This document shows, piece after piece, positions 13,301-36,660 of a DNA stretch of 64,000 nucleotides. Each line of letters begins with the position of its first letter. The stretch's first letter is position 1. Both the position numbers and the translations under genes were made by a program. Origin of the DNA: Bilabrum cf. latius (Eukaryota); assembly GCA_965178125.1 (NCBI GenBank), contig OZ237760.1, positions 248,001 through 312,000 of the forward strand, written 5' to 3'. A model generated the notes under the pieces. It searched no databases. It saw only the letters and a list, made by a program, of their open reading frames with translations, and had not been told where the DNA came from.

Positions 13301-16300
13301 AGGTCCTGAGCCTCTTTCTCGAACGCTGCTTTCTCTAGCTGCAGCTGGTCCCGGCTCGCGCCTGCCTCGTCTGCCTGCTGGTTGGCCTTCTCTAGCTGCT
13401 TCGCAAGCTTTTCGGCCTGTTCTGTGGCGCTATTTGCCCCTTCTTCTGTCTGCGCCGCAGCACGTTCCGCCTCGATGACCCTCTACCTTGCCCGATCCAG
13501 CTGCGTGGCAAAGTCAGCACGAGCCTTCTCCGCCTCTGCCTGGGCCTCTACCGCCTGCTTCGCCGCGCCGACCGCAGCCTCCGCTCTCTGCTCCCAGTGC
13601 TGGGCAGAGGCCCTTGCCTGCTCTGCCTGGGATTCTGCCTGGGTGGCGCGTTGCCTCCACTGCGACAGCTCGTCGCCAGCCTACTGCAGCAGCTCCATGC
13701 TCCCCCTTGCTTCCTCTCGGGACTGCGATAGCTCCTCCTGCGTGCTGGCTAGCTGGCTCTGTGCGCGCTCCACCAGCGTCTCGGTTCTCGAGGCGCGTCC
13801 TGCCGCCCTGTCCCTCTCCTTCTCCAGTGCCTCTACCTCCTCCCGGGCAGCTTTCAGCTTGGTCGCCATCCGCTGCAGCTGGTCCTGCTGCTCCTTCACA
13901 ACGCCCGTCTGGCGGTCCAGCTCCGCGGTCACTTCACGGAGCTCCGAATCGAGCTTGCGGGCATCGCCCGCCTCGTCCTCCCGCGCTCTCTCGGCCTTGC
14001 CTCTTGCCTGGGCCAGCGCGCGGCCAGATCGTGCCGCCTGCTCTTCTGCCTCGCTGGCCCGTTGCCTCTCCCTTCTCAGGCTCGTTTCCAGCTCGACTTG
14101 CCTCTGCCTCACCGTCGCTAACTCCTGCTCTCGCTGCTCCTTCTCCACCTCGAGCGCCGCCAGCTTCTTCTTCGCCTCATGCGCCTCGCCCTCTGCCTCT
14201 GCCCTGCTCTCCGAAACGGCCTAGAGCTGCACACGCACGTCTGACAGCTCGCTCGACAGGGATACACGTTCCGTGCGCGCGGCTTCCGCTGCCTGCTTGG
14301 CTTGCTGCTGCTAGGTGGATGCTTGCTTCGCGGCATCTGCTTCCGCCTCTGCCTTCTGCCTCGCCTCATCCCGCTCCAGCTGGGCGTGCTTGGCCTGCAC
14401 CTTGAGTTCTCTCAGCTGCTCCTGGGCCTTGCTCTCTCTAGTACGCAGCAGCTTGGCCTCGCTGGTGGCGTCTTCAAGCTACTCCTTGAGGCGATGGAGG
14501 GCCCGCCGTCCAGCCGTGGCTTCGCTGGCTGACTTGCGCGCGCCCTCCAGCTCTGCCTTTGTCCGTTCGAGCTGCTCCTCCAGTTTGGCCACCTTTGCTC
14601 TGAGCGCCTGGGATGCAGGGGACTCGGCCTGTTGCGCGTGCTCACTACCAGCGGATGAATGCTTCGAATCGATGCTTCCCCGGGAGGCACCGGCGATGGC
14701 TGAGCCACCGTCCGAGATACCGCCACCTCCTGTATGCTTGGCACGGATCGCGGCTTGCCGCCTCAGGTCCTCGATCTCTGCACCTGCCGCTTGCAGTAGC
14801 TGCATGGCACTGTCCGCTTCTTCCTGGGCCCCTTTCGCGTGCTGCAAGGCCGCCTGCAGCTGCGCGCTCATCTGCTGCACAGACAGCTCCGCTGCGTCCG
14901 CTCGTGCGGTGTGGCGCTCACACGCCTGTGCCAGCCCCTCCGCTTGCGCACGCAGACCAGACAGCTCTGACTCGAGCTTCGGCACATCTGATAACCTGCT
15001 TTCAGCTTGATCGAGGCTTCGCCGCAGCTCATCGGCTTCCTTTTCGTGCTTTGCTGCCAAGGCCGATGATGCTCGCGCCCTGTCATTGGCGCCGTTCAGC
15101 TGCTGTTGCTGTGCGTCGATCTGATCTAGCAGCTCAGCAGCTCCTCCTGCTCTTTCCCTCTCTTTCCTCAGGCTAGTCTCCAGGGCTTTGATCTGCTCAG
15201 CGGCCTCAGCGCTGCTCCTCTTGCTGTCATCGAGCTCCACCTCGAGCGCCGCCAGCTTCTTCTTCGCCTCGTGCGCCTCGCCCTCTGCCTCTGCCCTGCT
15301 CTCCGAAACGGCCTAGAGCTGCACACGCACGTCTGACAGCTCGCTCGACAGGGATACACGTTCCGTGCGCGCGGCTTCCGCTGCCTGCTTGGCTTGCTGC
15401 TGCTAGGTGGATGCTTGCTTCGCGGCATCTGCTTCCGCCTCTGCCTTCTGCCTCGCCTCATCCCGCTCCAGCTGGGCGTGCTTGGCCTGCACCTTGAGTT
15501 CTCTCAGCTGCTCCTGGGCCTTGCTCTCTCTAGCGCGCAGCAGCTGGGCCTCGCTGGTGGCGTCTTCAAGCTGCTCCTTGAGGCGATGGAGGGCCCGCCG
15601 TCCAGCCGTGGCTTCGCTGGCTGACTTGCGCGCGCCCTCCAGCTCTGCCTTTGTCCGTTCGAGCTGCTCCTCCAGTTTGGCCACCTTTGCTCTAAGCGCC
15701 TGGGAAGCAGGGGACTCGGCTAGTTGCGCGTGCTCACTACCAGCGGATGAATGCTTCGAATCGATGCTTCCCCGGGAGGCACCGGCGATGGCTGAGCCAC
15801 CGTCCGAGATACCGCCACCTCCTGTATGCTTGGCACGGATCGCGGCTTGCCGCCTCAGGTCCTCGATCTCTGCACCTGCCGCTTGCAGTAGCTGCATGGC
15901 ACTGTCCGCTTCTTCCTGGGCCCCTTTCGCGTGCTGCAAGGCCGCCTGCAGCTGCGCGCCCTTCTGCTGCACAGACAGCTCCGCTGCGTCCGCTCGTGCA
16001 GTGTGGCGCTCACACGCCTGTGCCAGCCCCTCCGCTTGCGCACGCAGACCAGACAGCTCTGACTCGAGCTTCGGCACATCTGATAACCTGCTTTCAGCTT
16101 GATCGAGGCTTCGCCGCAGCTCATCGGCTTCCTTTTCGTGCTTTGCTGCCAAGGCCGATGATGCTCGCGCCCTGTCATTGGCGCCGTTCAGCTGCTGTTG
16201 CTGTGCGTCGATCTGATCTAGCAGCTCGGCAGCTCCTCCTGCTCTTTCCCTCTCTTTCCTCAGGCTAGTCTCCAGGGCTTTGATCTGCTCAGCGGCCTCA

Positions 16301-17058
16301 GCGCTGCTCCTCTTGCTGTCGTCGAGCTCCACTTCGAGCGCCGCAATGCGACGGCTGGCGTCGCGGACCTCTTGCGCTGTTTTACTCGCACCTGCCTGTG
16401 ATTTCTGCAGCTGACCTTTCAAGTTATTGTTCTCGCGCGATAAAGCATCCAAATTACGTTCTGCTTGCGCGTGTGTAGACTTGATTTTGCTCAACTCGGT
16501 GGTCGCATTCCGAAGCGCAGAATCCGTCGCGCCTGACTTCCGGTCAGCGGCATCCTTCTCCAGTTTCACATGACGAAGTTCTATGCGGCATTTTTGCAAT
16601 TCCATTTTAGCCTCAGCCTCCCGAGATCGCTACTGCTCAAGCTGCTCCAAGGCCTCCTGAAGCTCTTTGCCTTGCCTTGCAATACGAAGCCGCACGGATT
16701 CAGCCTCACTTCCCTGTTCTGATTCTTTGGCCACAGATTGCTGGCGTATACGTGCTGCTTCTGCTTTTGCTTCATCCCTTCCGGCTTCAGCTGTTCTCAG
16801 CTTTCGCTGCAAGACCTCTAGAACCTCGGCAGCCTACCCGACGCTGCTACTTTCGCCTGCCTTGATCTCGTGCTTCTAAATGGTCAATTCCAATCGATCA
16901 ATTTTCAATCGTAGGTCCTCATTTTGCGCCCCGAGTTTCTGCGCCTGATAGGCTGACGACTCTGCCCGCTGCTGCCAGTCGGCTATTGATGCTTCTGCTT
17001 GAGCTGCCCGCGCCTCTGCACGCTGCAGACGCTCGCCTAGAGCTATATTCTAGGACAT
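10348..17058 (-). CDS. Giant coiled-coil protein (about 2236 aa, no intron required)
   Basis: ORFs 10525-10962, 11191-12378, 12457-13131, 13681-14148, 14479-15240, 15403-16605 and 16630-16812 are one frame joined through TAG. ATG at 17058 (MS(TAG)NIALGERLQRAEAR), with an in-frame TGA just upstream; TGA stop at 10350-10348. Sequence is heptad-like and A/E/Q/R/K-rich. Confidence 0.82.
14143..16344. repeat. In-frame tandem duplication of 1092 bp (364 codons)
   Basis: 14143-15234 is near-identical to 15235-16326, with an 18-bp junction motif CTCCAC(C/T)TCGAGCGCCGC at 14143, 15235 and 16327. Confidence 0.93.
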
Positions 17059-17460
17059 TTGAACAGATCAAACTGACAAAACAACCATAGATGAAGACCA
17101 AGTATTAGCAAGCCAATGGTTCGTCAAACGGATTGAAACACGGTTGTAACCGCCGGCGGCACTTGCACTTGGGGAGCCGCCGGCGCCTCAGCAACTTGGG
17201 CAGCTCAGGCGGCCTGCCTTCGCTGGCCGTTTGACAAGTCCATGTATGAGCCCGCATTGCGGAAGAAACTGAGTCCCGAGCATGCCCGGGAGCCAGACAC
17301 AGCGTAGTCAGATTTCCAGTCTCGAGATTCTTGCTGCACTGCACTTAAGCCCGTGTGTAGCCTGCAAGAGAGGCGCAAGCTCCGAATTTTGACATTAAAT
17401 CCAGCCAGGAAGCAAGCTAATTGACCCTACGACTGCAGTCGCACAGCAAAGTGCCCCCAT

Positions 17461-20409
17461 TCAAGCATGGAGCATCTGCTGCCGCCTGCCAGCCTTGGAC
17501 CCGCGCAGAGACCTGAACTCCATGCCGGTATCGGGATACTTGCGAGCGAGCGCCTCCTCCTCGGCGAGTGCCTTGGCTGCCTCCGGATCGTTGGCCATGT
17601 CGACCTCGGCAGCGAGGTCCTCGCTCTGGGCCTTCGGCTGCGAGTCACCATCATCGTTGCCGCCGTTCACCTGTTTCTGGTCCTCCTCGGACTCATCCTG
17701 CTGCTCCTCGGACTCATCCTGCTGCTCCTCGGACTCATCCTCGTTGGAGTTGTCCTCGCTGGACTCATCCTGCTGCTCCTCGGACTCATCCTCGTTGGAG
17801 TTGTCCTCGCTGGACTCATCCTGCTGCACCTCGGACTCATCCTCGTTGGTGCTGTCCTCGCTGGACTCATCCTGCTGCTCCTCGGACTCATCCTCGTTGG
17901 TGCTGTCCTCGCTGGACTCATCCTGCTGCTCCTCGGACTCATCCTCGTTGGTGCTGTCCTCGCTGGACTCATCCTGCTGCTCCTCGGACTCATCCTCGTT
18001 GGTGCTGTCCTCGCTGGACTCATCCTGCTGCTCCTCGGACTCGCCAACGCCATCCTGGCGCACGGAAACAAATCGAGCGGGCTCCTCCTCCTTGGTCTCC
18101 TCATCCTTGGCCTCCTCGGCGGCGGGCTCCTCCTCCTTGGCCTCCTCCTCCTTGGTCTCCTCGGCGGCGGGCTCCTCCTCCTTGGCCTCCTCGGCGGCGG
18201 GCTCCTCCTCCTTGGCCTCCTCCTCCTTGGTCTCCTCGGCGGCGGGCTCCTCCTCCTTGGCCTCCTCGGCGGCGGGCTCCTCCTCCTTGGCCTCCTCGGC
18301 GGCGGGCTCCTCCTCCTTGGTCTCCTCGGCGGCGGGCTCCTCCTCCTTGGCCTCCTCGGCGGCGGGCTCTTCCTCCTTGGTCTCCTCGGCGGCGGGCTCC
18401 TCCTCCTTGGTCTCCTCGGCGGCGGGCTCCTCCTCCTTGGCCTCCTCGGCGGCGGGCTCCTCCTCCTTGGTCTCCTCGGCGGCGGGCTCCTCCTCCTTGG
18501 CCTCCTCGGCGGCGGGCTCTTCCTCCTTGGTCTCCTCGGCGGCGGGCTCCTCCTCCTTGGCCTCCTCGGCGGCGGGCTCCTCCTCCTTGGCCTCCTCGGC
18601 GGCGGGCTCCTCCTCCTTGGTCTCCTCGGCGGCGGGCTCTTCCTCCTTGGTCTCCTCGGCGGCGGGCTCCTCCTCCTCGGCCTCCTCCTCCTTGGTCTCC
18701 TCGGCGGCGGGCTCCTCCTCCTTGGTCTCCTCGGCGGCGGGCTCCTCCTCCTTGGTCTCCTCGGCGGCGGGCTCCTCCTCCTTGGTCTCCTCGGCGGCGG
18801 CCTCCTCCTCCTTGGCCTCCTCGGCGGCGGGCTCCTCCTCCTTGGCCTCCTCGGCGGCGGGCTCCTCCTCCTCGGCCTCCTCCTCCTTGGCCTCCTCGGC
18901 GGCGGGCTCCTCCTCCTTGGTCTCCTCGGCGGCGGGCTCCTCCTCCTTGGTCTCCTCGGCGGCGGGCTCCTCCTCCTTGGTCTCCTCGGCGGCGGGCTCC
19001 TCCTCCTTGGCCTCCTCGGCGGCGGGCTCCTCCTCCTTGGCCTCCTCGGCGGCGGACTCCTCCTCCTTGGCCTCCTCGGCGGCGGGCTCCTCCTCCTTGG
19101 CCTCCTCCTCCTTGGTCTCCTCGGCGGCGGGCTCCTCCTCCTTGGTCTCCTCGGCGGCGGGCTCCTCCTCCTTGGTCTCCTCGGCGGCGGGCTCCTCCTC
19201 CTTGGCCTCCTCGGCGGCGGGCTCCTCCTCCTTGGCCTCCTCGGCGGCGGGCTCCTCCTCCTTGGTCTCCTCGGCGGCGGGCTCCTCCTCCTTGGTCTCC
19301 TCGGCGGCGGGCTCCTCCTCCTTGGCCTCCTTGGCGGCGGGCTCCTCCTCCTTGGTCTCCTCGGCGGCGGGCTCCTCCTCCTTGGCCTCCTCCTCCTTGG
19401 TCTCCTCGGCGGCGGGCTCCTCCTCCTTGGCCTCCTCGGCGGCGGGCTCCTCCTCCTTGGCCTCCTCGGCGGCGGGCTCCTCCTCCTTGGTCTCCTCGGC
19501 GGCGGGCTCCTCCTCCTTGGTCTCCTCGGCGGCGGGCTCCTCCTCCTTGGCCTCCTTGGCGGCGGGCTCCTCCTCCTTGGTCTCCTCGGCGGCGGCCTCC
19601 TCCTCCTCGGCCTCCTCCTCCTTGGCCTCCTCGGCGGCGGGCTCCTCCTCCTTGGTCTCCTCGGCGGCGGGCTCCTCCTCCTTGGTCTCCTCGGCGGCGG
19701 GCTCCTCCTCCTTGGCCTCCTCGGCGGCTGGCTCCTCCTCCTTGGCCTCCTCGGCGGCGGGCTCCTCCTCCTCCTTGGTCTCCTCGGCGGCGACCTCCTC
19801 ATCGGCACCGTCCTTGGCGGCCTCCTCCACCACAGCCTCGGCCTTGTCCTCCGCGGCCTCACTGGCCTCCTTGCTCTCCTGGGCCTCTTCCTTGGCCTCC
19901 TCCGCCTTCTCCTCAACCTTTTCGATCTTTTCTTCGGCCTCCTTGGTAGTCTCCTTCACGTCCTTGGCCAGCTCCTCGTGCTTGTCCTCAAGGGTGTCCA
20001 CGCTCTTCGCCACGTCAGCCACCTTGCCCTCCATTTTTTCTACCCGGTCGGCGAGCTCCTTGGCAGCCTCGTCGTCCTTGGAGGAGGAGAGGTCCTTGGG
20101 GGAGAGGCCGCACCCCTGCACGATCTTGGGGCCCTCCTTGATCACCCGGTTGGCGGCGGCCGACACGGTGCCCTCCTCCACCTTGCCCGCTCGAATGTCC
20201 CTGATGCACTCCAACTGGCTATCGCTGATGTCGTACACCTGGTGAAGGGCGGTCTTGCACTCAGCCGTGCACGTATTGCCCTTGGGGCAGGCCGAGCTTA
20301 TCTTCTCGGCCATCGTCTCGATCAGAGCCACATCCTCGGAGCTGCATCCAGCGTTTGCCGTTGCGGCAATAGCTGCTACAGCCAATAAAATATGCGCAAT
20401 AAGCTTCAT
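17461..20409 (-). CDS. Secreted/surface protein: signal peptide, small Cys-rich domain, short coiled coil, long acidic repeats (about 982 aa)
   Basis: Signal peptide MKLIAHILLAVAAIAATANA, then six Cys, then (EEEPAAEE[T/A]K)n and (ESEEQQDESSEDSTNED)n; ends TGA at 17461. Confidence 0.82.
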   Translation of the reverse strand: MKLIAHILLAVAAIAATANAGCSSEDVALIETMAEKISSACPKGNTCTAECKTALHQVYDISDSQLECIRDIRAGKVEEGTVSAAANRVIKEGPKIVQGCGLSPKDLSSSKDDEAAKELADRVEKMEGKVADVAKSVDTLEDKHEELAKDVKETTKEAEEKIEKVEEKAEEAKEEAQESKEASEAAEDKAEAVVEEAAKDGADEEVAAEETKEEEEPAAEEAKEEEPAAEEAKEEEPAAEETKEEEPAAEETKEEEPAAEEAKEEEAEEEEAAAEETKEEEPAAKEAKEEEPAAEETKEEEPAAEETKEEEPAAEEAKEEEPAAEEAKEEEPAAEETKEEEAKEEEPAAEETKEEEPAAKEAKEEEPAAEETKEEEPAAEETKEEEPAAEEAKEEEPAAEEAKEEEPAAEETKEEEPAAEETKEEEPAAEETKEEEAKEEEPAAEEAKEEESAAEEAKEEEPAAEEAKEEEPAAEETKEEEPAAEETKEEEPAAEETKEEEPAAEEAKEEEAEEEEPAAEEAKEEEPAAEEAKEEEAAAEETKEEEPAAEETKEEEPAAEETKEEEPAAEETKEEEAEEEEPAAEETKEEEPAAEETKEEEPAAEEAKEEEPAAEEAKEEEPAAEETKEEEPAAEEAKEEEPAAEETKEEEPAAEEAKEEEPAAEETKEEEPAAEETKEEEPAAEEAKEEEPAAEETKEEEPAAEEAKEEEPAAEEAKEEEPAAEETKEEEAKEEEPAAEEAKEEEPAAEETKEEEAKEEEPAAEEAKDEETKEEEPARFVSVRQDGVGESEEQQDESSEDSTNEDESEEQQDESSEDSTNEDESEEQQDESSEDSTNEDESEEQQDESSEDSTNEDESEVQQDESSEDNSNEDESEEQQDESSEDNSNEDESEEQQDESEEQQDESEEDQKQVNGGNDDGDSQPKAQSEDLAAEVDMANDPEAAKALAEEEALARKYPDTGMEFRSLRGSKAGRRQQMLHA
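17686..18040. repeat. About 51-bp coding tandem repeat (ESEEQQDESSEDSTNED, about 6 copies plus shorter units)
   Basis: Repeated GGACTCATCCTGCTGCTCCTCGGACTCATCCTCGTTGG... on the + strand. Confidence 0.88.
18077..19790. repeat. 30-bp coding minisatellite (EEEPAAEETK/EEEPAAEEAK), more than 50 units with interspersed 15-bp half units
   Basis: Repeated CTCCTCGGCGGCGGGCTCCTCCTCCTTGG(T/C) on the + strand. Confidence 0.95.
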
Positions 20410-21364
20410 GCCTAACTGCGAGCGTTCAGAGGAGTGTCTCAAGGGTGCACCATTTGAGGCTGTTGCTGGCTCTACCAACAAGGAATGGTCCAAGATATCA
20501 CAAGAGAGCCTTCAAAGTGTAAGGGGTTTGACCAAACTACACAGACGAGTACAGCTGCTTCTATCATGAACTGAATACAGACACGCGACAAGGTCGGTGC
20601 TGCCTGCGATGTGCGCTGCACATCCAAATCATGCGGTCTACTACAGTTTTCCAGGAATTCAAGCACTCAATACGATCAATCATGCTGATGCACTCAAAGG
20701 ATGTAAGTAATTCAAGGGGCCAACCCGCTGCATCACCAGAAATGATACAGGCAGAACACAGCAGCCAGCCAGAGACACATAATTGTTTCAATTCAATGCA
20801 TTGAATAAGGCATCCCGAAGATTTGTCGATCCACAATGCTGTAAACAAGGTATAACTTACAGCTTGTGGCAAAGTGCTCGCGCGAACTGTCCTTACCTAC
20901 GGACTAGAACCACTGATATTTCGGGAGGCTTTGCGCTGGCTTCTGGATCAAACATTACTGTATAGACTAATATATCAGAGTTTGGCAATCTGAACGTTCC
21001 CTAAGGTTCACCGGGCAGTACTGTGTTCTGGGGGCTTATTGCGAGGAAATTATTTCATCCGACGCTCTCCAAGCTCATTTTTAATAATTCATAGAGAAGG
21101 GATGGTCTAAAGAGTTGATTGGAATCGAGTCTGAATGAACATTGGTGCTTGGCTTCCTCTATATATACCTTTCGCATGCTTTTCTGAGAAAGATAATGTA
21201 AATAATGGTCAGAATAGATCAACCATGTGTCTAGTGTGTTGCCTTGAAGCATAAGCTAAGCGTGCGACCACGCAGTTGCAGTTTGCACCGTCGAGCAGGT
21301 TGCAACCGCTTGCGAAATGTGTCCGGTGCGTCGAGGCCCGCACACGAGGAGGCTTTGGCCCAGG

Positions 21365-25256: not shown

Positions 25257-26553
25257 ATGAAGTCATGGGTGCTTCCGATCATCGCCTCAGCATGCGCCTT
25301 AGCATGTACTGATGATGTGGACTGCTCGCTCAATGGGATCTGTCAGTCCGGGACGTGCGCATGCGACGCGCCATGGGGTGGGCCGAACTGCGAGCTGCTG
25401 CAGTTCAAGCCGGTTTCATACCCTCAAGGATACGGCACAGCCACGACGGTGGCTACGTGGGGCGGTAATGCCATATACAATGAGACTGATGGCCTCTACC
25501 ACATGTTCGTCTCCAGGATGACCAATGAATGCCAGCTAAACAGGTGGACCAAGAACAGCAGGATCGATCACGTAAGAGTTTTGATCTATTGAATAATTTG
25601 GCTATGACTCTAGCGTACATTGTCCCCTCGAGCACGAGTTTAACCGTCGCACGCAGGCGGTCTCCCCCAACATAACCGGGCCGTACACTTTCATGGACAT
25701 TGCGATCAACACGTGGTCCCACAACGCCGCTCCAGTGCAGCTCAAGGACGGCACGTTTGCCATCTTCCACATCGGGGATGGCACCGGGGCTCCTGACGGC
25801 GGGGCAAACTGCACGAATGCCTCCGAGCCGGACGCTGCTGCGGCATCCACGACCGGCTTGCGGGCAGGAACACTGGCAGGAAGGAAAGACGGATGGCGCG
25901 GGGAACAAGGTGCCTCTAAGAGTGCACCTAGCGACCATGCCTCCTCCCGCTCTTCCTCCGGGTCGACCATCCACGTGTCCAACTCATTGTACGGCCCGTG
26001 GGAACCCCTGCAGCCCAACCCGCTGCCGGGCTGCAACAACCCGGCGCCGTGGGTGCACCCCGACAACGGGACCGTGTACATCGTCTGCAGGCCCAAGATC
26101 TACCGCACCGACAACCTGACGGAGGGCTGGACTTACGTGGCCGATGTGCCCACGCATGGCGGCGCCGGCCCCAACCAGGAGGACCCCTTCCTGTACACGG
26201 ACAAGCGGGGCAACTGGCACGCGATCTTCCACACGTACGATCTCACGCACCCTGACCAGTGCAGGAACAGCACGGTCTCGTCACACGCGTTCTCCCCTGA
26301 CGGCTACAACTGGACCATGAGCCCAGTGCAGCCGTACACCACCCAGGTGCCCATCGGCATGGGCGAGTATATAACGGTGTCCACGAGGGAGAGACCGAAG
26401 CTGTGGTTCAACAAGGAGGGGGTGCCGACGCACCTGTTCAATGGGGTGTGCAGTGCCGCGGCATGCCCAGGCATTCCCTGCGTCAATTGCAAGACGGCCG
26501 GTGGATTCTGGGACTACACCCTCGTGGCGCCGCTCTCGACTGCGGATGACTGA
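25257..26553 (+). CDS. Secreted EGF-like + five-bladed beta-propeller glycoside hydrolase (GH43-like clan), paralog 1, about 403 aa
   Basis: Signal peptide, then CTDDVDCSLNGICQSGTCACDAPWGGPNC. Propeller motifs TWGG, YHMFVS, GPY, HN.., NNPAP, EDPFLY and RERPKL. Intron 25572-25656 (GTAAGA...CGCAG); ends TGA. Confidence 0.8.
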
Positions 26554-26656
26554 GAGCCGCGAGTGGGCGACTGAGGGGCCTGTGGATTCTGGGACTACAC
26601 CCTCGTGGCGCCGCTCTCGACTGCGGATGACTGAGAGCCGCGAGTGGGCGACTGAG
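26501..26656. repeat. 75-bp tandem duplication of the last codons, stop and 3' UTR start of paralog 1
   Basis: 26501-26575 is identical to 26582-26656, separated by GGGCCT. Confidence 0.92.
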
Positions 26657-26734
26657 TGGCTTGTAAAATGGAGTATTCTAGCTTAAATGTTCCGAATGAA
26701 GCAGGACACAAATCTCTGCAGCCTGCCGAGTGGT

Positions 26735-26888
26735 GATTCAATGGCACCCCTACTGACGAATACAGAGCATCCATGTACAGTGATGTTTGGGCCGATAGTG
26801 GTATACTGATCGGATCAATTCCGAGTACGAGCTGAGCGAGACCAGCGCTCTCACTTAGGGGAATTCAGAAGAAGATAAAGGAAATAAT
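26735..26888 (+). repeat. Ngaro repeat A1
   Basis: Matches 33061-33214 (GATTCAATGG...GGAAATAAT). Confidence 0.95.
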
Positions 26889-29234
26889 GCTCAGCCAGCA
26901 GAGTGCGCAATGGAAGCAAAGCCGGGCGATCGTGGCGCGAATGACCACTCGTATGGCCCCAACGGTGAGGCGGAGGGTGAACGCTGTGGGTGGTGTTTTC
27001 GATGTGTTTCAAGGTATGGCTGTTGAACACATGTCGAGCTTCTCGGAGCCTGTCGTACGCGAGGCTGTGAACATGCTAAACAAAGAAGGGGCAGATGCGC
27101 AGCGGGCTCTGTTGGGCAGCTGCGTACGCGGCCACACGCCGGTCGCTTCCCTGGGCGCAGGGGCTGCCGTTATGGGCGTGTTCAAACCGACCACGACGCC
27201 AGACGTGGAATCGGGCCTGCGTGGCGCTCTGGAAGTGGCAGCAGGGTTCTCAAAGGACGATCTGATGCCCGAGGACCATGTTCGTCGGCGAGCGCGGCGA
27301 CGGGTGGAAACTCAGACCAAGATGCGACGGGCAGCAATGGGGTGCTCCCACTCTGGGGAGCACCGGTGATCCCGGTACCATCCGGGGCATCAACAACAGC
27401 ACCATTCACGGGGTCAAGGCCTGAACGTGTAGCCGGGGGGCCGATGGGAGCGCACTCACTGGGCCGGGGCATCATGGACGGTGGCGGGTTTGGGTGGAAA
27501 CTGCCTGCCCCAAGCGGGGGGGCCGGTGCAGGGGCGACTGCTACCTCAGGCCATCCGCCGAGCGAGCTGGGCCTCTTTGATTTTGGGGGCGGATTCAGCC
27601 ATGGTGGAGTGACTGCGGCCGATGCTGGGGCGGGTGGCAAACCAGCGGGAGGTCCAACGGCAAGCCGCGGTGCCAGCGCGGTGTTTGGGGCGCAGGCGTC
27701 GATGGGCACCATCTCGGGCGCAACGCTGGGAAAAAGGGGGAGAGCGGAAGAGGTGGGGGAAGCACAAGCTCCCTGGGAGGCCATTGTGGCGGATTCGGAA
27801 CGTCGCACCAAGGCGGCAAGGCGCGAGCAAGAGGTCGAGGGAGCATCCGCGGGAGCAGGAGAGGCGACCGCGAGTGACGCGATCGACAAGCGAATTCAAC
27901 AGGCGGTTGCGGCCATGGCATCGGGTGAGCCCAATGGTACGTTGTAGTTGCTCCGTGCCCTTGCGCTTGAGTTAAATGCCCGGCCCGAGCACTCCACCCA
28001 GGCGATTAAGTCGTCAGCCGGCGCCTGCAAGAAGTCACCATACCAGGGCCAGGTCGGAGCAGACGATGGAGACGGCGCCAAGGAAGTGCATAATTCCATT
28101 CCCACGGCGAAGGGAGTTGACTCTTTGTTCTACGACACCGTACGGTCTTAGGAGGTGCTTCAATTTAGGGACAGTGCACGGTATTTGGCCGAACTCGGGG
28201 AGGAAGGCGAGAGAGCTAAGGACTTGGCCTCAGTGGCGCTGACGAGTGCGGACAAGGCAAAGATTTCGTTACTTCGGATTGAACGCCCCGCGCAGATAAT
28301 GTTCGCTTCTATGGCGAGTGCGGCTGGTTTTCGCCGGGAGTCAGGATCTGGCCGCAGCTTTCATGTGGCACCGGTGCTGGAGGAGGCGGGTGATTTGCTC
28401 ATGCCGGACGGGATCAGGCAATTTGCGAGTAAGTGCGGGTAGCACGTGTTGTCGGGAGTGGCAGAACTGGAACAAGGCAACATTTTTCGATTACCCACGA
28501 TATTGACCAGATCGGTGTGTGGGGCGCTCGAGTGGGTCGTGGCAGGGAGCACGTCGTTGCTGAAGGTGGTTATCACACTTGCGACACTGCTGCACCAGGA
28601 TAAGCATGCGGAAGCCAGGGCAGTAATGAGCAAGCTTCACGAGGCGTTGGAGATTGCAGTGCGAAGAATGTTCTTGGGCTTAGGGATGGTCCTTCATGCG
28701 GCAGCAGTCCGCACGGCAGGTGGAGGCAACGGGGACACAGCCAATACGGGTCAGCATTTCGTGTTAGCAACTGCTCTGCGCATGATTTTGATACATAGGG
28801 TGGCACCAGTGGGGAGAATGGATACTCCTGCGGTGCTTCGACTGTGGTAGTTGCGGAGCGAGAACGAGACCCCGCTGCGGATGACGCAGACTCAGGTGGG
28901 GCCCACGTGGGAATTACTGGGACTGAATCCGGCAGGCAACCATAGCGCTATGGCGTGGGAGGATGTGACAGCCGCGATAGACAAGTCAGCATTGGAGCGA
29001 GCGAAGCGGGTGGCAAAGGAGCATGGGGCCGCAGCTGGAGGAGCGGGGGCAGCGGCAAAACGGTAGTCAGCGAAGGCCAGCAGCAGCAGCAGCAGCAGCA
29101 GTAGCGCGAGTGCGGGTGGACAAGAGTCGCAGCAGGAGTCAGAGCGCCAAAAAGGGACGACATCGGGGCCCAAAACGTAGGCGGAGCCCCGTACCTCCCC
29201 AAGACGAAGTGGCCGACTAGCGGGGAATGGGTGA
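26887..29234 (+). CDS. Ngaro ORF1 (gag-position protein), with an apparent frameshift near 27280
   Basis: ATG at 26887 opens frame 1 to TGA 27369. An overlapping frame (27342-27947, 27948-28151, 28155-28442, 28446-28850, 28851-29066) is continuous through TAG to TGA 29232-29234. The gag call rests on position only. Confidence 0.6.
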
Positions 29235-31626
29235 CGCGGCCCGAGCCAGGGGAAGGGCTGCAGTAGTGTAGGCATGTGCACTATCTTCGGAAGCAGCGCA
29301 AAAAATCCTGGCTCAGCAGAAGACTCCGACCCTACAGCGTGGTGAGCCGAGCCTGCGGACACTGGATGGGCGGTGCATTGTGACGGACATCATGGAACAC
29401 GCGGACGAATTGTTGGACTAGGTTGCATCTGCAGGCCCCTCGAGACGATGGCACGAGGTGCAGATGGAAGCAGCCGGCTATTCTGTGGACAATGACGGTG
29501 ATGCGGGAGCGGGGATGACTGGGGATGCGCCGTCAGCATTGGGTGCGGACGGGATGTGGTAGGCTTGGGCACGATGCCTGGCAAAGCGGGACAAGATTGA
29601 CTTGCGGTCATTCCCACCGGGCTAGGCACCATCATCTGCTTTGGACGTCTGGTATGGAACGTTGTCACACTGGGAGCGTAGGGGCGAACTGCAGCAGGGG
29701 GAGCGATGGGCAGCACGCTAGCCGTGTACGCTGTCACCTCGTGGAGCATGGCAGGCACATTTGGCTCGTTGTCGACGCTGCGGGGCGCGGGGCGCAGTGG
29801 AGCCCGATTGTGTAGCGGGCCGGGGGTTTGTTGGACTGGCACGACATGGGCTTCGGGCGGAGGCAGTCTTGAAGGTGTTGGGGGCGCAGCCGGTACGGGC
29901 TGACCCGAAGGACTTGCCGGCGGACGAGGAGGATGTAGTCCCGTTCGTGGAAGCAGCAGCGAGTGCAGGCAAGATTCGACCGGTGGAGGGCGCCGCGGTC
30001 TAGGTGACGCCTATGTTCGTTGCCAAGAGGACCGCAATCGAGGTACAGCAGCGGGAGGGTCAGACACCACGCTTGGTGCAGCGGGAGGACACGACTGGCA
30101 AGCAGCGCCTAGTCACGGATATGAAGCGCTCGGGCGCGAACGAGGCATTTCTTGACTTGCGTTTCCGGTATGGTGATTTTGCTCGGCATTTAGCAGAGCG
30201 CGTGGGACGTGACAGGCACGAATGGGGGGCAGCCTTCGATTTCAAGGCGGCATATCATAGTATAGCGCTGGCACCGGGGCTGCAGCGATGGATGGCAGTT
30301 CGCGGAGTGGGTGGCAGCATGTTTTAGTTTGTGGTCTTGTCGTTTGGTTGCAGAATGGGCTGTTTTGTCGCATCAGTAGTGTTGGCAGAGTGTTTAGCGG
30401 GGGTGCGACTGCGCACCGCACATTGGGCTTTTGGGTACATTGATGATGGCTTTCTGTCAGCACGTACGGAGGCCCGCACTATGTAGTTGTTGTGGTGTGC
30501 CGTGCTTGTAGCGCGGGGGATTGGCATGAGGATATAGCCTAGCAAACTTACCTTTCCAACATAGGTGATTGAGTTCCTTGGGCTAAAGATTACCCTGGGA
30601 GCCCACTTGAAGGTGACACTGCGCTCGGATCGATGGCCACGGATCCACGCAGTGCTGAGGACCGTTGAGCGAATGCGAGCTTTCAACATGCTAGCAACGA
30701 GTGCGCTGGCGGTCAAGGCTGTGGAGAAACTGGCAGGACAGTTGGGCGCGGCTGCGGCAGTAATCCCCCACGCTTCGCAGCACGTGTTTGCGATATACTA
30801 GGCGGCTGCAAAGGCTCGCAAAGGTGGTAGGCACATCTGGACGGCAGAGTTCAACGAGGAATTTGAGTGGTGGCTGACATGTAGGGACCGCGGTATCTTG
30901 ACAGCGGCAGCAGCTGCACCGATATACCCGTTGCCGGAGGGGAGAGCATCCGTGTTTTGTGCTGACGCGTCAGCCCATGGACTGGGTGCAATGTGGCGCC
31001 GAGGCAATGGTGATTCTGGCTTGATGCAAATGGGTTTCCACGAGGACATGCAGTTACTATCCAGTACGGCACGCGAACTAGCATCACTACGAGCTTTTTT
31101 GTCAGGACCAGGCTAGTTGGCGAGGAGCCAGACTTGCCCAGAGGCGCTCTTCGTGCTGTCAGACAATCAAGCCCTGCCAAATTTGCTGCGGAAGGGCGGC
31201 TCGATGAAGGCTGGGTAGCGAGATGAGCTGCGAGAGATTGGAAGGCTGGCTGAGAACTTGGGATACGTGATCTTCCCCGTGTGGTAGAGGCGAAGTACAC
31301 CGATCATGGTGGCATGCGATAGATTGAGCAGGGTGGAGGACGGTGCTGGTCAACTGGTGTAGACGGCGGGGCAGCGCGTGGGCAAAACGGGGTTTGTCTC
31401 GGCGGCAAGGGCGACATCTGACTCAACTTTTCATGCACCATTTCATCTTCGCAGGACCATTTGGGGAGCTGATCCCAGTGACTGGACGAGCAGGCTCAAG
31501 TGCTGCGGCACAACGGCGAGCAGCGGTGGCGGCGACTAGGACCCTGATGCTGTAGGAGAGTCAGCAGCTCGGCAAGGGAGCTCTGGACGCGCGCAGGCGG
31601 AATCTGACCATGCAGGCGGAACTTGA
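29227..31626 (+). CDS. Ngaro ORF2: reverse transcriptase + RNase H (about 799 aa)
   Basis: One frame with more than 10 in-frame TAG and no TAA/TGA until 31624. RT motifs KQRLVTD, FDFKAAYHSI, MF(TAG)FVVLSFG, GYIDD and PT(TAG)VIEFLG. RNase H motifs FCADAS, ARELASL, LSDNQA and ACDRLSR. Confidence 0.9.
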
Positions 31627-32671
31627 GGTCGGGGATCCGGTGGAGGCCATGTGGGCTTTGCTGACGGAGTAGTGCGCCGCCGGGTTGAAGTATGCCACAG
31701 TGTTGCGATTGTTCCAAGCGCAAACGGCGTGGTTCAGGTCAGCGGAGTTCCCGCGTACCCCACTCGCAGACGTGGAGTACAGGCAGGTCAAACTGGCCCT
31801 GCTCGGCTACAAGCGTAGATGTGCCGGGGCGACGGATCCGGACGCGGTACGTGCCCTACGTGTCCTGGTGGACAACCCTGTAACGTTGCGAGCACTAGTG
31901 ATGATGGCCTGGTAGCTGCAGGCAGAGTGGGATTCGATGTGGCAAGGCCCAGCTGCGCTGGCCCGTGCGGACTACAACTCAACACCAGCGGTTCTCGATA
32001 CATTTATGTGCTGCTATGTGGGGACATTCTGTGGCTTGGCCCGGTGGCCAGATCTGGTGCATCTGGCAATAGGGGAGATAGAGTGGACTGCAGCGTCTGA
32101 TGACAACGAGGTTGTTCCCGTGGCACTGATTGGGTGGCAGCGGTACAAGTCGCGGGTGCTCGGCGGCAACCCCGAGCAGCGCCCGCCAGCGGTCATTCCA
32201 TGCTTGCCGGATGGATTCGAGGAGTTGTGCCCGTATCGGTGGCTGAAGTGGTGGGTATCAGTTCGGTAGCCAACACAAGGGCAGCGCGGGGAAGTATTCG
32301 CCTCTCGAACACGGGCTGCGCACAGTGCCACGCTGCAGTGGATAACAGCGCAAGGGATTCCTGTGCACCGCAAGGGGGAGGGTGTGTACGCCTTCAAGAG
32401 TGCGGGAGTGTCAGCATTGCGCCAGACGGACCCAACCAAGGACGAGAAGTACGTGCACGGCCAGGCTGGGTGGTCTCTGCCCAACATGCCAGCGGTGTAT
32501 GATCGTTACTCATTGATGGAAGCGGCAAGGGTTACGAGGAGTGGGATTCTTCGGGCTATGGTGGGAGCTGGCTCCATCCCAGAACTTCTGAAGACTTGGG
32601 AATCCCAACGCAGGGAGCTTCACCGGAGCCCAGTGAGCAGTGGTGGGGGTGAACGGGATTCAGGGCTCTAA
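31433..32671 (+). CDS. Ngaro ORF3: tyrosine recombinase (about 412 aa), overlapping ORF2
   Basis: Fragments 31343-31555, 31685-31915, 31937-32269 and 32363-32671 join through TAG. Motifs FCGLARWPDL (box I Arg), YKSR, LCPYRWL, GVYAFKSAGVS and HGQAGWS..M...Y. Ends TAA 8 bp before B1. Confidence 0.82.
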
Positions 32672-32679
32672 CTGGGCCA

Positions 32680-33060
32680 GTGGGTGTTCCTTGCGGCGTT
32701 CGATGGGCGAACAGCCAAAAGGGGGGCCCAGTGTAGATCCCGTGGCCAGTGGCAGGTAGTCCCCATAGCGGCTTGAAAGGTCCGTGCCGCCTGCCCAGTG
32801 CCCGGGGAAGCACCAGCCAAAACCAAAGCGCCACGGAAGGAGGAGATTACGAGGAGCAGGTACTAGGTACGAGAGTGGAAGCTGAGGGCAGGACAAAGCG
32901 GCCAGCCGGGCCTAGGCGGCACGGAGACGGCCGTGCTAGCGACAGACGAGTGGGCGACGGTGGGTAGCGGCGCACGAGTGGCGCGTGGCGGGAGAGGGAG
33001 AGTGCTGGGGGAGCGAAGCATTGAGCGGTTGATCGACAGATCCACATTACCAACCATCAT
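32680..33060 (+). repeat. Ngaro repeat B1
   Basis: Matches 34498-34878. Confidence 0.95.
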
Positions 33061-33214
33061 GATTCAATGGCACCCCTACTGACGAATACAGAGCATCCAT
33101 GTACAGTGATGTTTGGGCCGATAGTGGTATACTGATCGGATCAATTCCGAGTACGAGCTGAGCGAGACCAGCGCTCTCACTTAGGGGAATTCAGAAGAAG
33201 ATAAAGGAAATAAT
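33061..33214 (+). repeat. Ngaro repeat A2
   Basis: Directly abuts B1; matches A1. Confidence 0.95.
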
Positions 33215-34497
33215 TTTTACTTTTATAGAATTGTTTCTTGTCTTGTTGGCCCCATTTCCTTCGGATATGGATGGGGCGGCATCGCGGCGGAGGCCGGGAG
33301 GTGAGGGGGGACCAGTAGTTGGCGGACAACAGAGGGGCCTACAGCTGAAGGGAGGGGTGCCAGGCGGATAAGGTTTACTCAGCGAGACAGGGCGTCTTAG
33401 GGGCGGGTAAGTGTGTGTGTGTCACTGCTGCCCGGTAGTGTGTGTAATATTCTCTTGGGAGGGGGGCGGAGGCAGACCGCTCCTCCTCCCTCCGCACTCA
33501 GTACCAGCATGAACCAGCCCTCTTTTCTGTTCATGTGGACCCCCTGACAACGGGGGGACCACGTGGCACCCACGCAGGATGGCGGCGCAGATTCGGAGGG
33601 TACCAACACTCATACCTAGCTACCAACATTTAAGCGTTGCGGAGGGCAACGGAACGGGGCCAGGGAAGCTGCGTGCGTCTAGCCATCTAGAACACGTGGA
33701 CGAACTGGTGGTGGCCTTTGCCACCATCCCATTTCACCAACCAGATGAGGCTCCGTGGTCGCATCTGGTGCCGATGGCCACTGTTAGCAGGACCGTTGGT
33801 GGGTGGCTTGGGGGGCCAGGGACTTGGCTGAGTCAAGTAGGCGTGGGAGTAGGGGTGGGTGCGGTCAGTATGAGGTCCGTGCCTCATGTTGATCGCTGTA
33901 AATCCGGCTATAGGTCGGAAGCAACCCACCCTCCCGGTTGCAACAGTGGGGACGGGTGTGAGGTGGCCACGCGTGAGGTGGTCATGAGACTGGGAGCAGA
34001 GGTGTGGTCCGTGCCGTAAAATCCCCCATGTGGAGCACCTCTGTTTTTCTGGAAGCACAAAGAACCGCGTTGCGGGCCCAGGAAACTTCTGTCCTTTGGA
34101 TGGCTCCGTGGCCGAAGGGGGACAGAGTGACCTGCACAGCCGAGAGGAGAGCCTGAATCTCGGATCGACCCTGGGACAGTCGCACCGGCGACACCCACCG
34201 AGAGAGCGAGGCGAGATCCTGCACAGCGTACGCTGCAGTGGAGGACCACTGTGGTGCTGCAAGAGGCACGGCAACGTGCGGACAGCAGCCGGACCCCGTA
34301 TCCTCACAGAGGGTAAGGCAATGGGAGCCTGAATAGGAGCGGACCGGGTGACGACTGTGCTGGGGCTGCGGTGAGCATACAGGACCGTGTCGAGCGTGGT
34401 GGGCTGGGCGGGATGTGCGAGCGGTGATGCCCTAACTCGATCGAGTTCAAGATTTTTTCTTCTTTTTGCGTGGTGGCGTCCCCTAGGTCGGGGCGGC

Positions 34498-34878
34498 GTG
34501 GGTGTTCCTTGCGGCGTTCGATGGGCGAACAGCCAAAAGGGGGGCCCAGTGTAGATCCCGTGGCCAGTGGCAGGTAGTCCCCATAGCGGCTTGAAAGGTC
34601 CGTGCCGCCTGCCCAGTGCCCGGGGAAGCACCAGCCAAAACCAAAGCGCCACGGAAGGAGGAGATTACGAGGAGCAGGTACTAGGTACGAGAGTGGAAGC
34701 TGAGGGCAGGACAAAGCGGCCAGCCGGGCCTAGGCGGCACGGAGACGGCCGTGCTAGCGACAGACGAGTGGGCGACGGTGGGTAGCGGCGCACGAGTGGC
34801 GCGTGGCGGGAGAGGGAGAGTGCTGGGGGAGCGAAGCATTGAGCGGTTGATCGACAGATCCACATTACCAACCATCAT
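34498..34878 (+). repeat. Ngaro repeat B2
   Basis: Matches B1 and defines the right end of the element. Confidence 0.95.
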
Positions 34879-34969
34879 CGCTGGTTCGTTCCGCCGGTTC
34901 GCTACAGGTCCTTCTTCCAATTGCCGTACAAAACAGCCATCAGGCGCAGCGCACCCTTGGAGAATCATT

Positions 34970-36242
34970 ATGCGATTAGTTCATTTTGCTACATTTGCTT
35001 CAATTGGCATCGCCTGCAGTACAGATGCCGATTGCTCGCTGAATGGCATGTGCAGGAGTGGCAGCTGCGACTGTTCGACTCCTTGGGGGGGTTAGCAGTG
35101 TGGGGAGTTACAGTTCGAAGACGTCCACTTTCCTCAAGGCTACGGAACCCCTGATACAGTAACATCCTGGGGAGGCAATGCCATCTACAACGAAAGTGAG
35201 GGGCTCTACCATGCTTACGTGAGCCGTATGACCAACGAGTGCAAGCTGGGCGATTGGCACAGGAACAGCAGAATTGACCACGTGAGACTATATCTTGCCG
35301 AGTCTGATCAACACAAGAGCTATCGTATGTAGGCTGAGTGCCTCCATGTGTACGACGTAATGTCCCCAATGTCTGTACCATCGCACGCAGGCCGTCTCTT
35401 CAAACATCACCGGACCGTACACATTTGTGGGTGTAGCCGTCAATACCTGGTCCCACAATGCCGCCCCAGTGTAGCTCAAGGACGGCACGTTCGCCATCTT
35501 CCACATCGGGGACGGCAGCGGCTCCCCCAACGGAGGTGCGCACTGCGGCAACTCGAGCGAGGCAGCACCCGATGCTGGCTCGACTCAGCAGAAAGGCTAG
35601 GCTGGCTATGACAAGGCACGCAGTCCACAGGACCACGGCACGGCTTCAAAGGGGTCGACCATCCACGTGTCAGACTCATTGTACGGCCCCTGGGAGCCAC
35701 TGCAGCCCAACCCCATGCCAAGCTGCAACAACCCCTCGCCGTGGGTGCACCCCGACAACGGGACGCTATACCTGCTATGCCGGGAGGGAAACCTGTACAA
35801 GACCGAGAGCATTTCTGATGGCTACGAGTTCGTCGCCCAGATACCCCTAGTCAACCCGTACGCGACGCACATGGAGGACCCCTTCCTGTTCACAGACAGC
35901 CGCGGCAACTGGCACGCGATCTTCCACGCCTTTGACTTCGACGTGCAGGACCAGTGCAGGAACAGCACGGTCGCCCTCCACAGCTACTCCCCGAACGGCT
36001 ACAACTGGACCATGAGCCCCGTGCAGCCGTACACCACCCAGGTGCCCATCGGCATGGGCGAGTATATAACGGTGTCCACGAGGGAGAGACCGAAGCTGTG
36101 GTTCAACAAGGAGGGGGTGCCGACGCACCTGTTCAACGGGGTGAGCGGGGTGCAGGCGTGCCCCGGCGTGGCGTGCGTGGCGTGCAAGACCAAAGGTCAC
36201 GCGTGGTGCTACACGCTCGTTGCCTCCCTCAAGGTTGCATGA
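34970..36242 (+). CDS. Secreted EGF-like + GH43-like beta-propeller hydrolase, paralog 2, about 387 aa
   Basis: Collinear with paralog 1, with an intron at the same codon position (35282-35390, GTGAGA...CGCAG). In-frame TAG at 35093, 35472 and 35598; ends TGA. Confidence 0.8.
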
Positions 36243-36660
36243 GCGAGCGGGCCAAACATCCGATCACCTGAAGAACATCGATCAGTCTAGTACCGATTTA
36301 CGAGCACAACCGTTTAGAAGTGTTACTTGGACAATCCTATTGCTACAATCAACCGCGACAGAGCCATGGTCACTGCCATGCCACCGCTTCCCCATTGACG
36401 ACAGTTCGACACCGTCCCTCAGCCCACGCCGTCCCTCTTCGGCAGGTTTGATGGTGGTCTGTTGGTGCGACCCCTTGCAAGGAAGCTACGCTGGTGTCAA
36501 ATGCTGGGCTTGCTTCCGTCCTAACCGGGCGTCCACCGCACAAGGCGCAACCAACTAACCAGCCATGCAGCTCCAGAGAGACTCCGCTCGCAACTGTCCT
36601 CGGAATCCTTGAGGCACGGACGTGCGGGTACCTGCAACGCGTCGCCAAGCAGACATTCTT

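Follow-up and report, generated by a model that had tools for sequence, protein, structure and literature searches.

Here we describe a retrotransposon of ~8.1 kb within a 64,000-nucleotide stretch of Bilabrum cf. latius DNA (contig OZ237760.1, positions 248,001 to 312,000)—this whole stretch is referred to below as the window, and all coordinates are window positions. The element spans 26734/26735–34878, with its limits placed by its repeats, and we read it as a DIRS-order retrotransposon of Ngaro-type architecture whose proteins need UAG to be read as glutamine (Gln), just as its host reads it; we put the probability of this reading at about 0.8. The features behind the name are split direct repeats, internal repeat copies downstream of the last open reading frame (ORF), and the lack of a methyltransferase. 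'Ngaro' is used here as a structural call according to the definitions in PMC4157794, and these features are homoplasious by the paper's own warning.

The evidence for a changed code begins with the stop codons. The four forward ORFs of the element, delimited by ATG, contain 25 in-frame TAG codons and no internal TAA or TGA in 1,865 codons; counted from stop to stop, the frames contain 28 TAG (6 + 18 + 4). In the two remaining frames of this DNA there are 72 TGA, 30 TAG, and 13 TAA, and by our own arithmetic the chance that 25 of 25 stops would be TAG at this off-frame mix is (30/115)^25, or ~1e-15. A first-pass annotation made from the sequence letters had noted more than 20 standard-code stops, all of them TAG, and had pointed to equal numbers of TGA and TAA as the mark of decay; the count of 25–28 agrees with the first statement, and the mark of decay is absent from the coding frames while being plentiful off-frame. 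A decayed standard-code element, with its stops as mutational damage, would explain why 25–28 stops appear under the standard code, but a TAG-only pattern cannot be obtained by random decay, the more so as TGA outnumbers TAG 2.4-fold off-frame. Decay also sits poorly with TAG columns that are Gln-rich in homologues, with intact catalytic residues and identical repeat pairs, and with the same TAG pattern in host genes. The stop counts refute this explanation, and we give it practically no credence.

The TAG codons fall where homologous proteins have glutamine. At 11 TAG columns of the reverse transcriptase (RT) alignment, Gln fills 177 of 763 cells (23.2%) in 137 distant homologues (147 aligned rows), as compared with a Gln share of 3.8% when every column is counted and 14.4% where the element itself has CAG or CAA. 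Gln is the commonest residue at the element's TAG columns in these distant homologues, with 88 of 133 of them carrying it in column 233; when 11 positions were drawn at random, the observed share was attained once in 5,000 draws. A random placement of TAG relative to Gln columns, which had been raised as the observation that would speak against a changed code, is thus not what we see.

Closer relatives give the same indication in a different form. The 13 best HMMER matches are short fragments of 42–242 aa, 38–99% identical, that have the look of ORFs truncated by gene calling under the standard code; 6 of the 13 (P0006, P0008, P0011, P0012, P0014, and P0018) end exactly before a TAG codon of the element (binomial 6.7e-8). 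Where fragments read through the element's TAG positions, Gln is found in 8 of 24 cells, and the 78%-identical P0014 has Gln at both of the TAG positions that it covers, TAG451 and TAG474. For ORF3, the fragments from a copy 96–98% identical end before TAG196; the relative P0157 has D and H at the element's two TAG positions, and its end aligns with an ordinary CAG/CAA Gln codon of the element. Relatives at 43–80% identity already share TAG positions. This comparison was made at the protein level only, and at that level both TAG conservation and TAG/CAG exchange, which had been proposed as checks, were seen. The family appears to be old in the TAG=Gln code, because TAG stands near its neutral frequency and has been exchanged with CAG/CAA among diverged relatives. 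Long-term residence of the element, as first proposed, draws on the fragments ending at TAG and on the Gln/TAG swaps in relatives, and this support is indirect.

Host genes in the window point to the same code. With TAG as sense, the long open frame of this GC-rich window (~63% GC) is roughly doubled, with frames of 2,441, 2,240, and 1,867 codons; with TAA as sense there is almost no change, and no long ORFs are merged. Eleven long host ORFs (14,646 codons) contain 84 in-frame TAG, and all 10 complete ones end in TGA; recognisable domains in these host ORFs are EF-hand, GRIP, and Utp12. The Utp12 gene (8729–10177) is a host homologue of UTP5/WDR43, and its TAG453 aligns with Gln in both human WDR43 and Chaetomium Utp5 (PDB structures), while TAG346 aligns with E, R, or Q—the conserved Gln at TAG453 therefore indicates that the host reads TAG as Gln. 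TAA never occurs in frame, while CAA is used 137 times in the host ORFs and 19 times in the element, with TAA/(TAA+CAA) at 0.17–0.29 in raw trinucleotides; given this use of CAA, TAA is not behaving as a Gln codon, and one of the element's frames, ORF3, ends in TAA.

The host code thus looks like a UAG-only reassignment to Gln, similar to NCBI table 15, with UGA kept as a stop and UAA apparently kept too: TAG occurs at Gln positions, and neither TAA nor TGA is used as sense. No tRNA genes, rRNA, or Rfam matches were found in the window, hence no suppressor tRNA is seen there. Codes of the UAG-only type are reported from few lineages: Iotanema, Protocruzia tuzeti, and a number of phyllopharyngean ciliates (PMC11687900); in Amoeboaphelidium, UAR is reported to be read as Gln (PMC5304391, PMC6299283), and UAR=Gln genomes can be rich in retrotransposons, as in Hexamita inflata (PMC11787283). 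The window itself is GC-rich and gene-dense, with very long ORFs and just a few hints of introns, and in this it differs from the fornicate and the ciliates that the cited work names for the UAG-only code. If the host lineage is undescribed, the non-reassigned UAA may outweigh the element in importance. Taken together, the sequence data support the reading that the element is written in a TAG=Gln code common to it and its host.

TAG is used more freely by the element than by its host. Per 1,000 codons there are 13.4 TAG in the element and 5.7 in the 11 host ORFs (Fisher p = 6e-4), and TAG makes up 28.7% of the Gln codons in the element and 10.5% in the host (p = 1.6e-5); TAG had been described as at least as dense as in host genes, and it is in fact denser. 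In frame, TAG/(TAG+CAG) stands at 0.37 for the element and at 0.127 for host genes; in raw trinucleotides this ratio is 0.32 in the non-coding part of the element and 0.20 in the whole window. With 0.37 in frame against 0.32 in its non-coding part, the element therefore uses TAG at about the level of its own base composition, and it is the host genes that avoid TAG somewhat.

A TAG density 2.4 times that of host genes could also be explained by a recent arrival from a standard-code donor, with the TAGs produced later from CAG by mutation of CpA to TpA, as in repeat-induced point mutation (RIP)—CAG to TAG is indeed a change of this kind. Read against the usual thresholds for RIP indices, the dinucleotides are ordinary: TpA/ApT is 0.67 as compared with 0.50–0.55 in the host, and (CpA+TpG)/(ApC+GpT) is 1.31 as compared with 1.50–1.58, which gives no RIP signature. 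There are zero differences within the repeat pairs, the TAG positions are already shared by the relatives at 43–80% identity, and no in-frame TAA is found despite the 19 CAA. The ordinary dinucleotide indices and the identical repeats rule out a RIP-like origin of the TAGs, and we hold the scenario as a whole to be very improbable.

The central ORF of the element, ORF2, carries the reverse transcriptase and RNase H. It matches Pfam RVT_1 (E = 2.3e-10, nt 30211–30591), with YIDD at nt 30436–30447 and an RNase H D-E-D-D series across nt 30964–31320. The RT/RNase H part of ORF2 (P0005) served as the query of a full-library HMMER search, and in its numbering the RT residues D125 and Y-I-D-D 191–194 and the RNase H residues D367, E404, D433, and D485 are all kept. 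These columns are near-invariant in homologues: D125 is D in 141 of 141, the two Asps of YIDD are kept in 139/141 and 141/141, and the RNase H residues are D in 74/77, E in 47/55, D in 43/48, and D in 30/30. The intact catalytic motifs that were read from the sequence at first pass are thus confirmed. The HMMER search gave 462 homologues at E <= 1e-3; a word-indexed protein search with the RT part gave one weak match. Among the 150 matches listed, the first 85 full-length ones were scanned with Pfam, and 17 of these carry a Dam-like methyltransferase after the RT/RNase H (E <= 0.01)—together, the homologues and their methyltransferases connect the element with the RTs of the DIRS group. One homologue, P0106, carries an ALOG domain.

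The repeats give the element its outline: A1, the ORFs, B1A2, a 1,283-nt spacer, and B2 (Table 1). B1 and A2 overlap by a single T (33060), and the palindrome ATCATGAT lies at the B-A junction (ATCA|T|GAT). The host flanks read ...GAGTGG[T] directly 5' of A1 and [T]CGCTGG... directly 3' of B2; one T is common to each junction, which makes the ends of the element ambiguous by 1 nt, and no target-site duplication is seen at the flanks beyond this single common T. The spacer gives weak and inconsistent codon-usage scores, and no Pfam match was found in its six-frame ORFs of >=70 aa. No inverted repeat pairs were found across 25500–36500, which sets the element apart from DIRS1-like elements, with their inverted terminal repeats and internal complementary region. 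Nor does it resemble a long terminal repeat (LTR) retrotransposon: its two ends carry unrelated sequences, A1 and B2, in place of two identical LTRs, and there is no rve integrase, no protease, and no duplication beyond one T. When the 67 six-frame ORFs of >=70 aa across 26700–34900 were scanned with Pfam, no methyltransferase, rve integrase, protease, or recombinase was found; RVT_1 in ORF2 was the only retroelement-type domain, and the one other match inside the element at E <= 0.01 was to DUF6522 (E 0.0021), below the cutoff and in an off-frame ORF.

The copy is young, as indicated by its identical repeat pairs: there are 0 differences in 536 bp of paired repeats, with a 95% upper bound on divergence of ~0.56% by our own arithmetic. 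The A and B pairs, which had looked identical by eye at first pass, are so over their full length, and this fits the recent insertion read from them. This reading of youth assumes that each cycle rebuilds the terminal copies from the internal B1A2, according to the model for the order; gene conversion could also have kept the pairs identical without youth. In a self-BLAST of 25500–36500 against the window, no second copy and no solo A or B repeat was found.

Table 1. Features of the element and the host genes on either side of it.
Feature	Position	Strand	Description
Host paralogue 1, 3' exon, upstream	25597..26553	+	TGA end ~180 nt before A1
Repeat A1, 5' terminal	26734..26888	+	155/155 nt identical to A2 (BLAST)
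ORF1a	27031..27369	+	Frame 1, 112 codons from ATG to TGA, no TAG
ORF1b	27444..29234	+	Frame 0, 6 in-frame TAG, open solely with TAG as sense
ORF2, RT/RNase H	29227..31626	+	800 codons, 16 in-frame TAG, TGA end
ORF3	31610..32671	+	Frame 2, 353 codons, 3 in-frame TAG, stop at 32669-32671
Repeat B1, internal	32680..33060	+	381/381 nt identical to B2; starts 8 nt past ORF3
Repeat A2, internal	33060..33214	+	155/155 nt identical to A1; abuts B1
Spacer A2-B2	33215..34497		1,283 nt, apparently non-coding
Repeat B2, 3' terminal	34498..34878	+	381/381 nt identical to B1
Host paralogue 2, downstream	34968..36242	+	Starts ~90 nt after B2

Several results weigh against the reading of the element as a DIRS-order, Ngaro-type retrotransposon in its host's code, and they concern the evidence for the code, the ends of the coding region, and the position of the RT. 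With regard to ORF2, Pfam makes no RNase H domain call. With regard to the code, we infer from protein records that the fragments of relatives end at TAG, and these ends should be taken as putative TAG codons.

The Gag-like region is the first weak point in the coding plan. A coding-frame score, using codon usage trained on the host ORFs, is best in frame 1 over 26940–27300, in frame 0 over 27420–29200, in frame 1 over 29220–31400, and in frame 2 over 31500–32580, the best frame tracking the ORFs one at a time. ORF1 is therefore not one open frame: the coding signal shifts from frame 1 to frame 0 near 27280–27440 and is weak across 27300–27440, and ORF1 may be frameshifted in this copy. ORF1a is possibly the start of a Gag-like protein, and ORF1b is putatively Gag-like by its position only; ORF1a has no Pfam match, and ORF1b has no family match in Pfam, PHROGs, or NCBIfam. 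The pair could represent two ORFs, a frameshift lesion, or a frame interrupted by a short GT...AG intron—by reading, removal of the 53-nt GT...AG stretch at 27366–27418 would restore a single ORF1 frame. Upstream of ORF1a, a further ORF of 38 codons (26910–27026) begins 22 nt after A1, contains C-x2-C-x2-C, and has its TGA end just before the region of the ORF1a ATG. The downstream frames are closely packed: the ATG of ORF2 lies within ATGGGTGA, overlapping the ORF1 stop, and the ATG of ORF3 lies 12 nt upstream of the ORF2 stop.

ORF3 is the second. It is a putative tyrosine recombinase, which its position and a size like that of the Ngaro recombinase suggest; however, the frame that was first called a recombinase is recognised as one by no family, structure, or phage search. 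ORF3 has no Pfam match even at E <= 10, hence none to PF00589; no usable match came from PHROGs or NCBIfam (a PHROG of undefined function had E = 0.095), PDB sequences searched with the single sequence and with a profile gave just chance-level rows for ATR and a zinc finger, and tblastn against phages gave nothing relevant. A phmmer search of ORF3 against the 150 listed RT matches found nothing, and neither did hhalign against the DIRS-like P0106 and P0043, the latter having an integrase-SAM match that stays below threshold (E 0.0037; 18.1 bits, where the cutoff is 27). A word-indexed search with ORF3 gave no match at near lengths and four fragments at shorter lengths. AlphaFold models of ORF3 reached a pLDDT of 33.6 alone and 39.6 with a 4-row alignment, folds that are unusable, and Foldseek on the better of these low-pLDDT models found no match at E <= 0.001, the rows that it lists being without meaning for a model of this quality. 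By eye only, motif-like strings can be picked out at R145, K180, Y260-x-x-K263, W288, and Y297/Y300, with a spacing that we take to be Cre-like. Tyr260-x-x-Lys263 stands, again by eye, where Cafeteria Ngaros are reported to have His-x-x-Arg, and the combination of PF00589 with His-x-x-Arg is not seen in the element. The Tyr-x-x-Lys string is kept in P0157, an ORF3 relative 58% identical, which suggests a family trait rather than a lesion.

These observations could be taken together to mean that the copy, although young, is defective or depends on others, a non-autonomous element with a frameshifted Gag-like ORF and a Tyr-x-x-Lys recombinase-like ORF that is moved, if at all, by the proteins of other copies. 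The change of frame between ORF1a and ORF1b with its weak coding signal, and an ORF3 that is unrecognisable to every search, are what one would expect of such a copy. Against this, Tyr-x-x-Lys is found in P0157 as well, all of the other frames are open with the start/stop overlaps that are typical of compact elements, and the split ORF1 could consist of two real ORFs, or of one whose halves are linked across 27366–27418. We consider a defective copy rather unlikely. Still more tentative, and in our view improbable, is a wider proposal in which the host belongs to a lineage with the UAG-only code, within which a tyrosine-recombinase retroelement family has diversified, sharing TAG to ~40% identity and carrying a recombinase with Tyr-x-x-Lys in place of His-x-x-Arg. 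If true, this would offer a variant recombinase chemistry, along with a natural system for studying the one-way nature of a stop-to-sense change as an export barrier.

The placement of the RT is the third point at issue. We built an RT tree of 65 rows, composed of 60 of the 85 Pfam-scanned matches (those with >=230 filled columns), P0006, P0010, the query, and two LTR/caulimovirus outgroups. The element, P0006, and P0010 form a three-member clade (SH-aLRT 98); deeper in the tree, whose rows are unnamed, the branching is not resolved, and the nearest neighbours include methyltransferase-bearing proteins. The RT phylogeny called for at first pass therefore places the element with two relatives and does not separate Ngaro from DIRS/PAT. 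In the same way, the original identification as a Ngaro retrotransposon stands for the architecture (split repeats, RT/RNase H, no methyltransferase) and not for membership of the Ngaro clade.

This leaves room for an origin outside the Ngaro lineage, as a PAT-like element of the DIRS group that has lost its methyltransferase. Split direct repeats are found in PAT elements too, and the three-member clade joins P0066 and the Dam-like-bearing P0052, P0089, and P0087 with an SH-aLRT of 94, which is below the cut-off of 95. The Dam-bearing proteins among the 85 scanned matches are interspersed with Dam-free ones, and there is a precedent in PMC4157794, where a Caenorhabditis briggsae 'Ngaro' lineage is a derivative of Pat1 without methyltransferase. 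On the other side, no trace of a methyltransferase is found in any frame, so that of the PAT pair of features the element has the split direct repeats and not the methyltransferase; in addition, the methyltransferase label is dispersed over the RT tree, with 9 changes for 12 rows, and a position close to it therefore carries little weight. We judge a PAT-like origin to be rather unlikely, and we continue to read the element as Ngaro-type in architecture.

If the element follows the family model, its cycle would begin with transcription from A1 into B2 and translation of the overlapping ORFs, with a host tRNA reading UAG as Gln. During reverse transcription, the internal B1A2 would template the joining of the ends into a circle, and ORF3 would afterwards carry out recombination between the palindrome at the B-A junction (ATCA|T|GAT) and a target, with no duplication of the target site.

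A resident element must match the code of its host, and TAG-rich ORFs are therefore to be expected—the element is a clean example rather than a surprise. What makes it clean is the combination of identical repeats, intact catalytic residues, and TAG at neutral frequency with no avoidance. The proposal that the code acts as a barrier to horizontal transfer follows logically for export to standard-code hosts only: the change from stop to sense is asymmetric, so import of standard-code elements stays possible, whereas export of this family would be halted after a few dozen codons. There is also a practical side. Public protein sets contain the family only as pieces of 42–242 residues (P0006–P0018, P0157–P0159), and such elements, together with the genes of their hosts, are probably fragmented systematically in public protein collections. 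Their abundance in variant-code genomes is likely to be under-counted, with standard-code callers cutting at TAG.

The insertion lies in a ~270-nt gap between two tandem host paralogues, which are 74.5% identical at the nucleotide level over 860 nt (paralogue 1 against 35377–36190). Paralogue 2 has a Met followed by a hydrophobic N-terminus and an EGF-like stretch in 34968–35280, and then changes frame into 35361–36242; judged by eye, its N-terminus resembles a signal peptide, and the change of frame near 35280–35360 is probably an intron. The product of the pair is probably secreted; besides the hydrophobic N-terminus and the EGF-like stretch, it has a domain that belongs to no known family, with a weak BNR-like match (E = 0.15). 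Immediately before the insertion site, an 81-nt tandem duplication (26496–26657, two copies, 98% identical) extends across the last codons and the TGA of the upstream paralogue.

Other host genes in the window have features of their own. The PDB matches of the UTP5/WDR43 homologue cover its C-terminal Utp12 part only, and the human N-terminal WD40 region is not in the ORF; upstream of it, at 6–8.5 kb, the GC content is lower (0.55–0.59), which suggests further exons and introns. On the minus strand at 10348–17067 there is a coiled-coil-like host ORF of 2,239 codons with 20 in-frame TAG, in which a block of several hundred residues is present twice, nearly identical. The region 17399–20511 (72% GC) encodes an acidic repeat protein on the minus strand, with units such as EEAKEEEPAA and ESSEDSTNEDESEEQQD; several frames are open on both strands at once, and the main frame is without TAG.

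Transposons of ciliates have ORFs that contain the host's reassigned stop codons, in other element classes and hosts. Our literature search gave nothing directly on transposons written in ciliate codes, and among the listed papers naming both 'Ngaro' and 'genetic code', a variant-code host was not a topic as judged by title and abstract. The closest parallels are the Ngaros of Cafeteria burkhardae, elements of 6–7 kb whose recombinase is reported to be found by PF00589 with His-x-x-Arg and Tyr (PMC8547959), along with the structural Ngaro/VIPER class. Like the Cafeteria elements, the one described here has the repeat order A1-[ORFs]-B1A2B2, is GC-rich, lacks an rve integrase, and follows a three-part coding plan with a Gag-like ORF1, an RT/RNase H ORF2, and a third ORF (PMC8547959). 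Unlike them, it reaches ~8.1 kb, has a 1.28-kb spacer between A2 and B2, a split ORF1, and an ORF3 without a PF00589 match and with Tyr-x-x-Lys by eye, and it needs TAG to be read as Gln (PMC8547959).

Within the wider order, the element resembles the structural Ngaro/VIPER type in having no methyltransferase and in carrying split repeats with internal copies downstream of the last ORF (PMC4157794). It shares with PAT elements the A1-B1-A2-B2 split direct repeats and a DIRS-type RT; in contrast, PAT elements encode a methyltransferase, and this element has none (PMC4157794). For the code, the best comparison is with a totivirus of yeasts that read CUG as Ser, in which the changed codon has been eliminated, with one CUG left, and the code has been discussed as a barrier to transfer (PMC3628385). 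Both are selfish elements with a codon usage that reflects the altered nuclear code of the host, but the totivirus has shed the changed codon, whereas the element described here uses it freely, at ~29% of its Gln codons (PMC3628385). A stop-to-sense change is free of cost for a resident element; a sense-to-sense change is costly.

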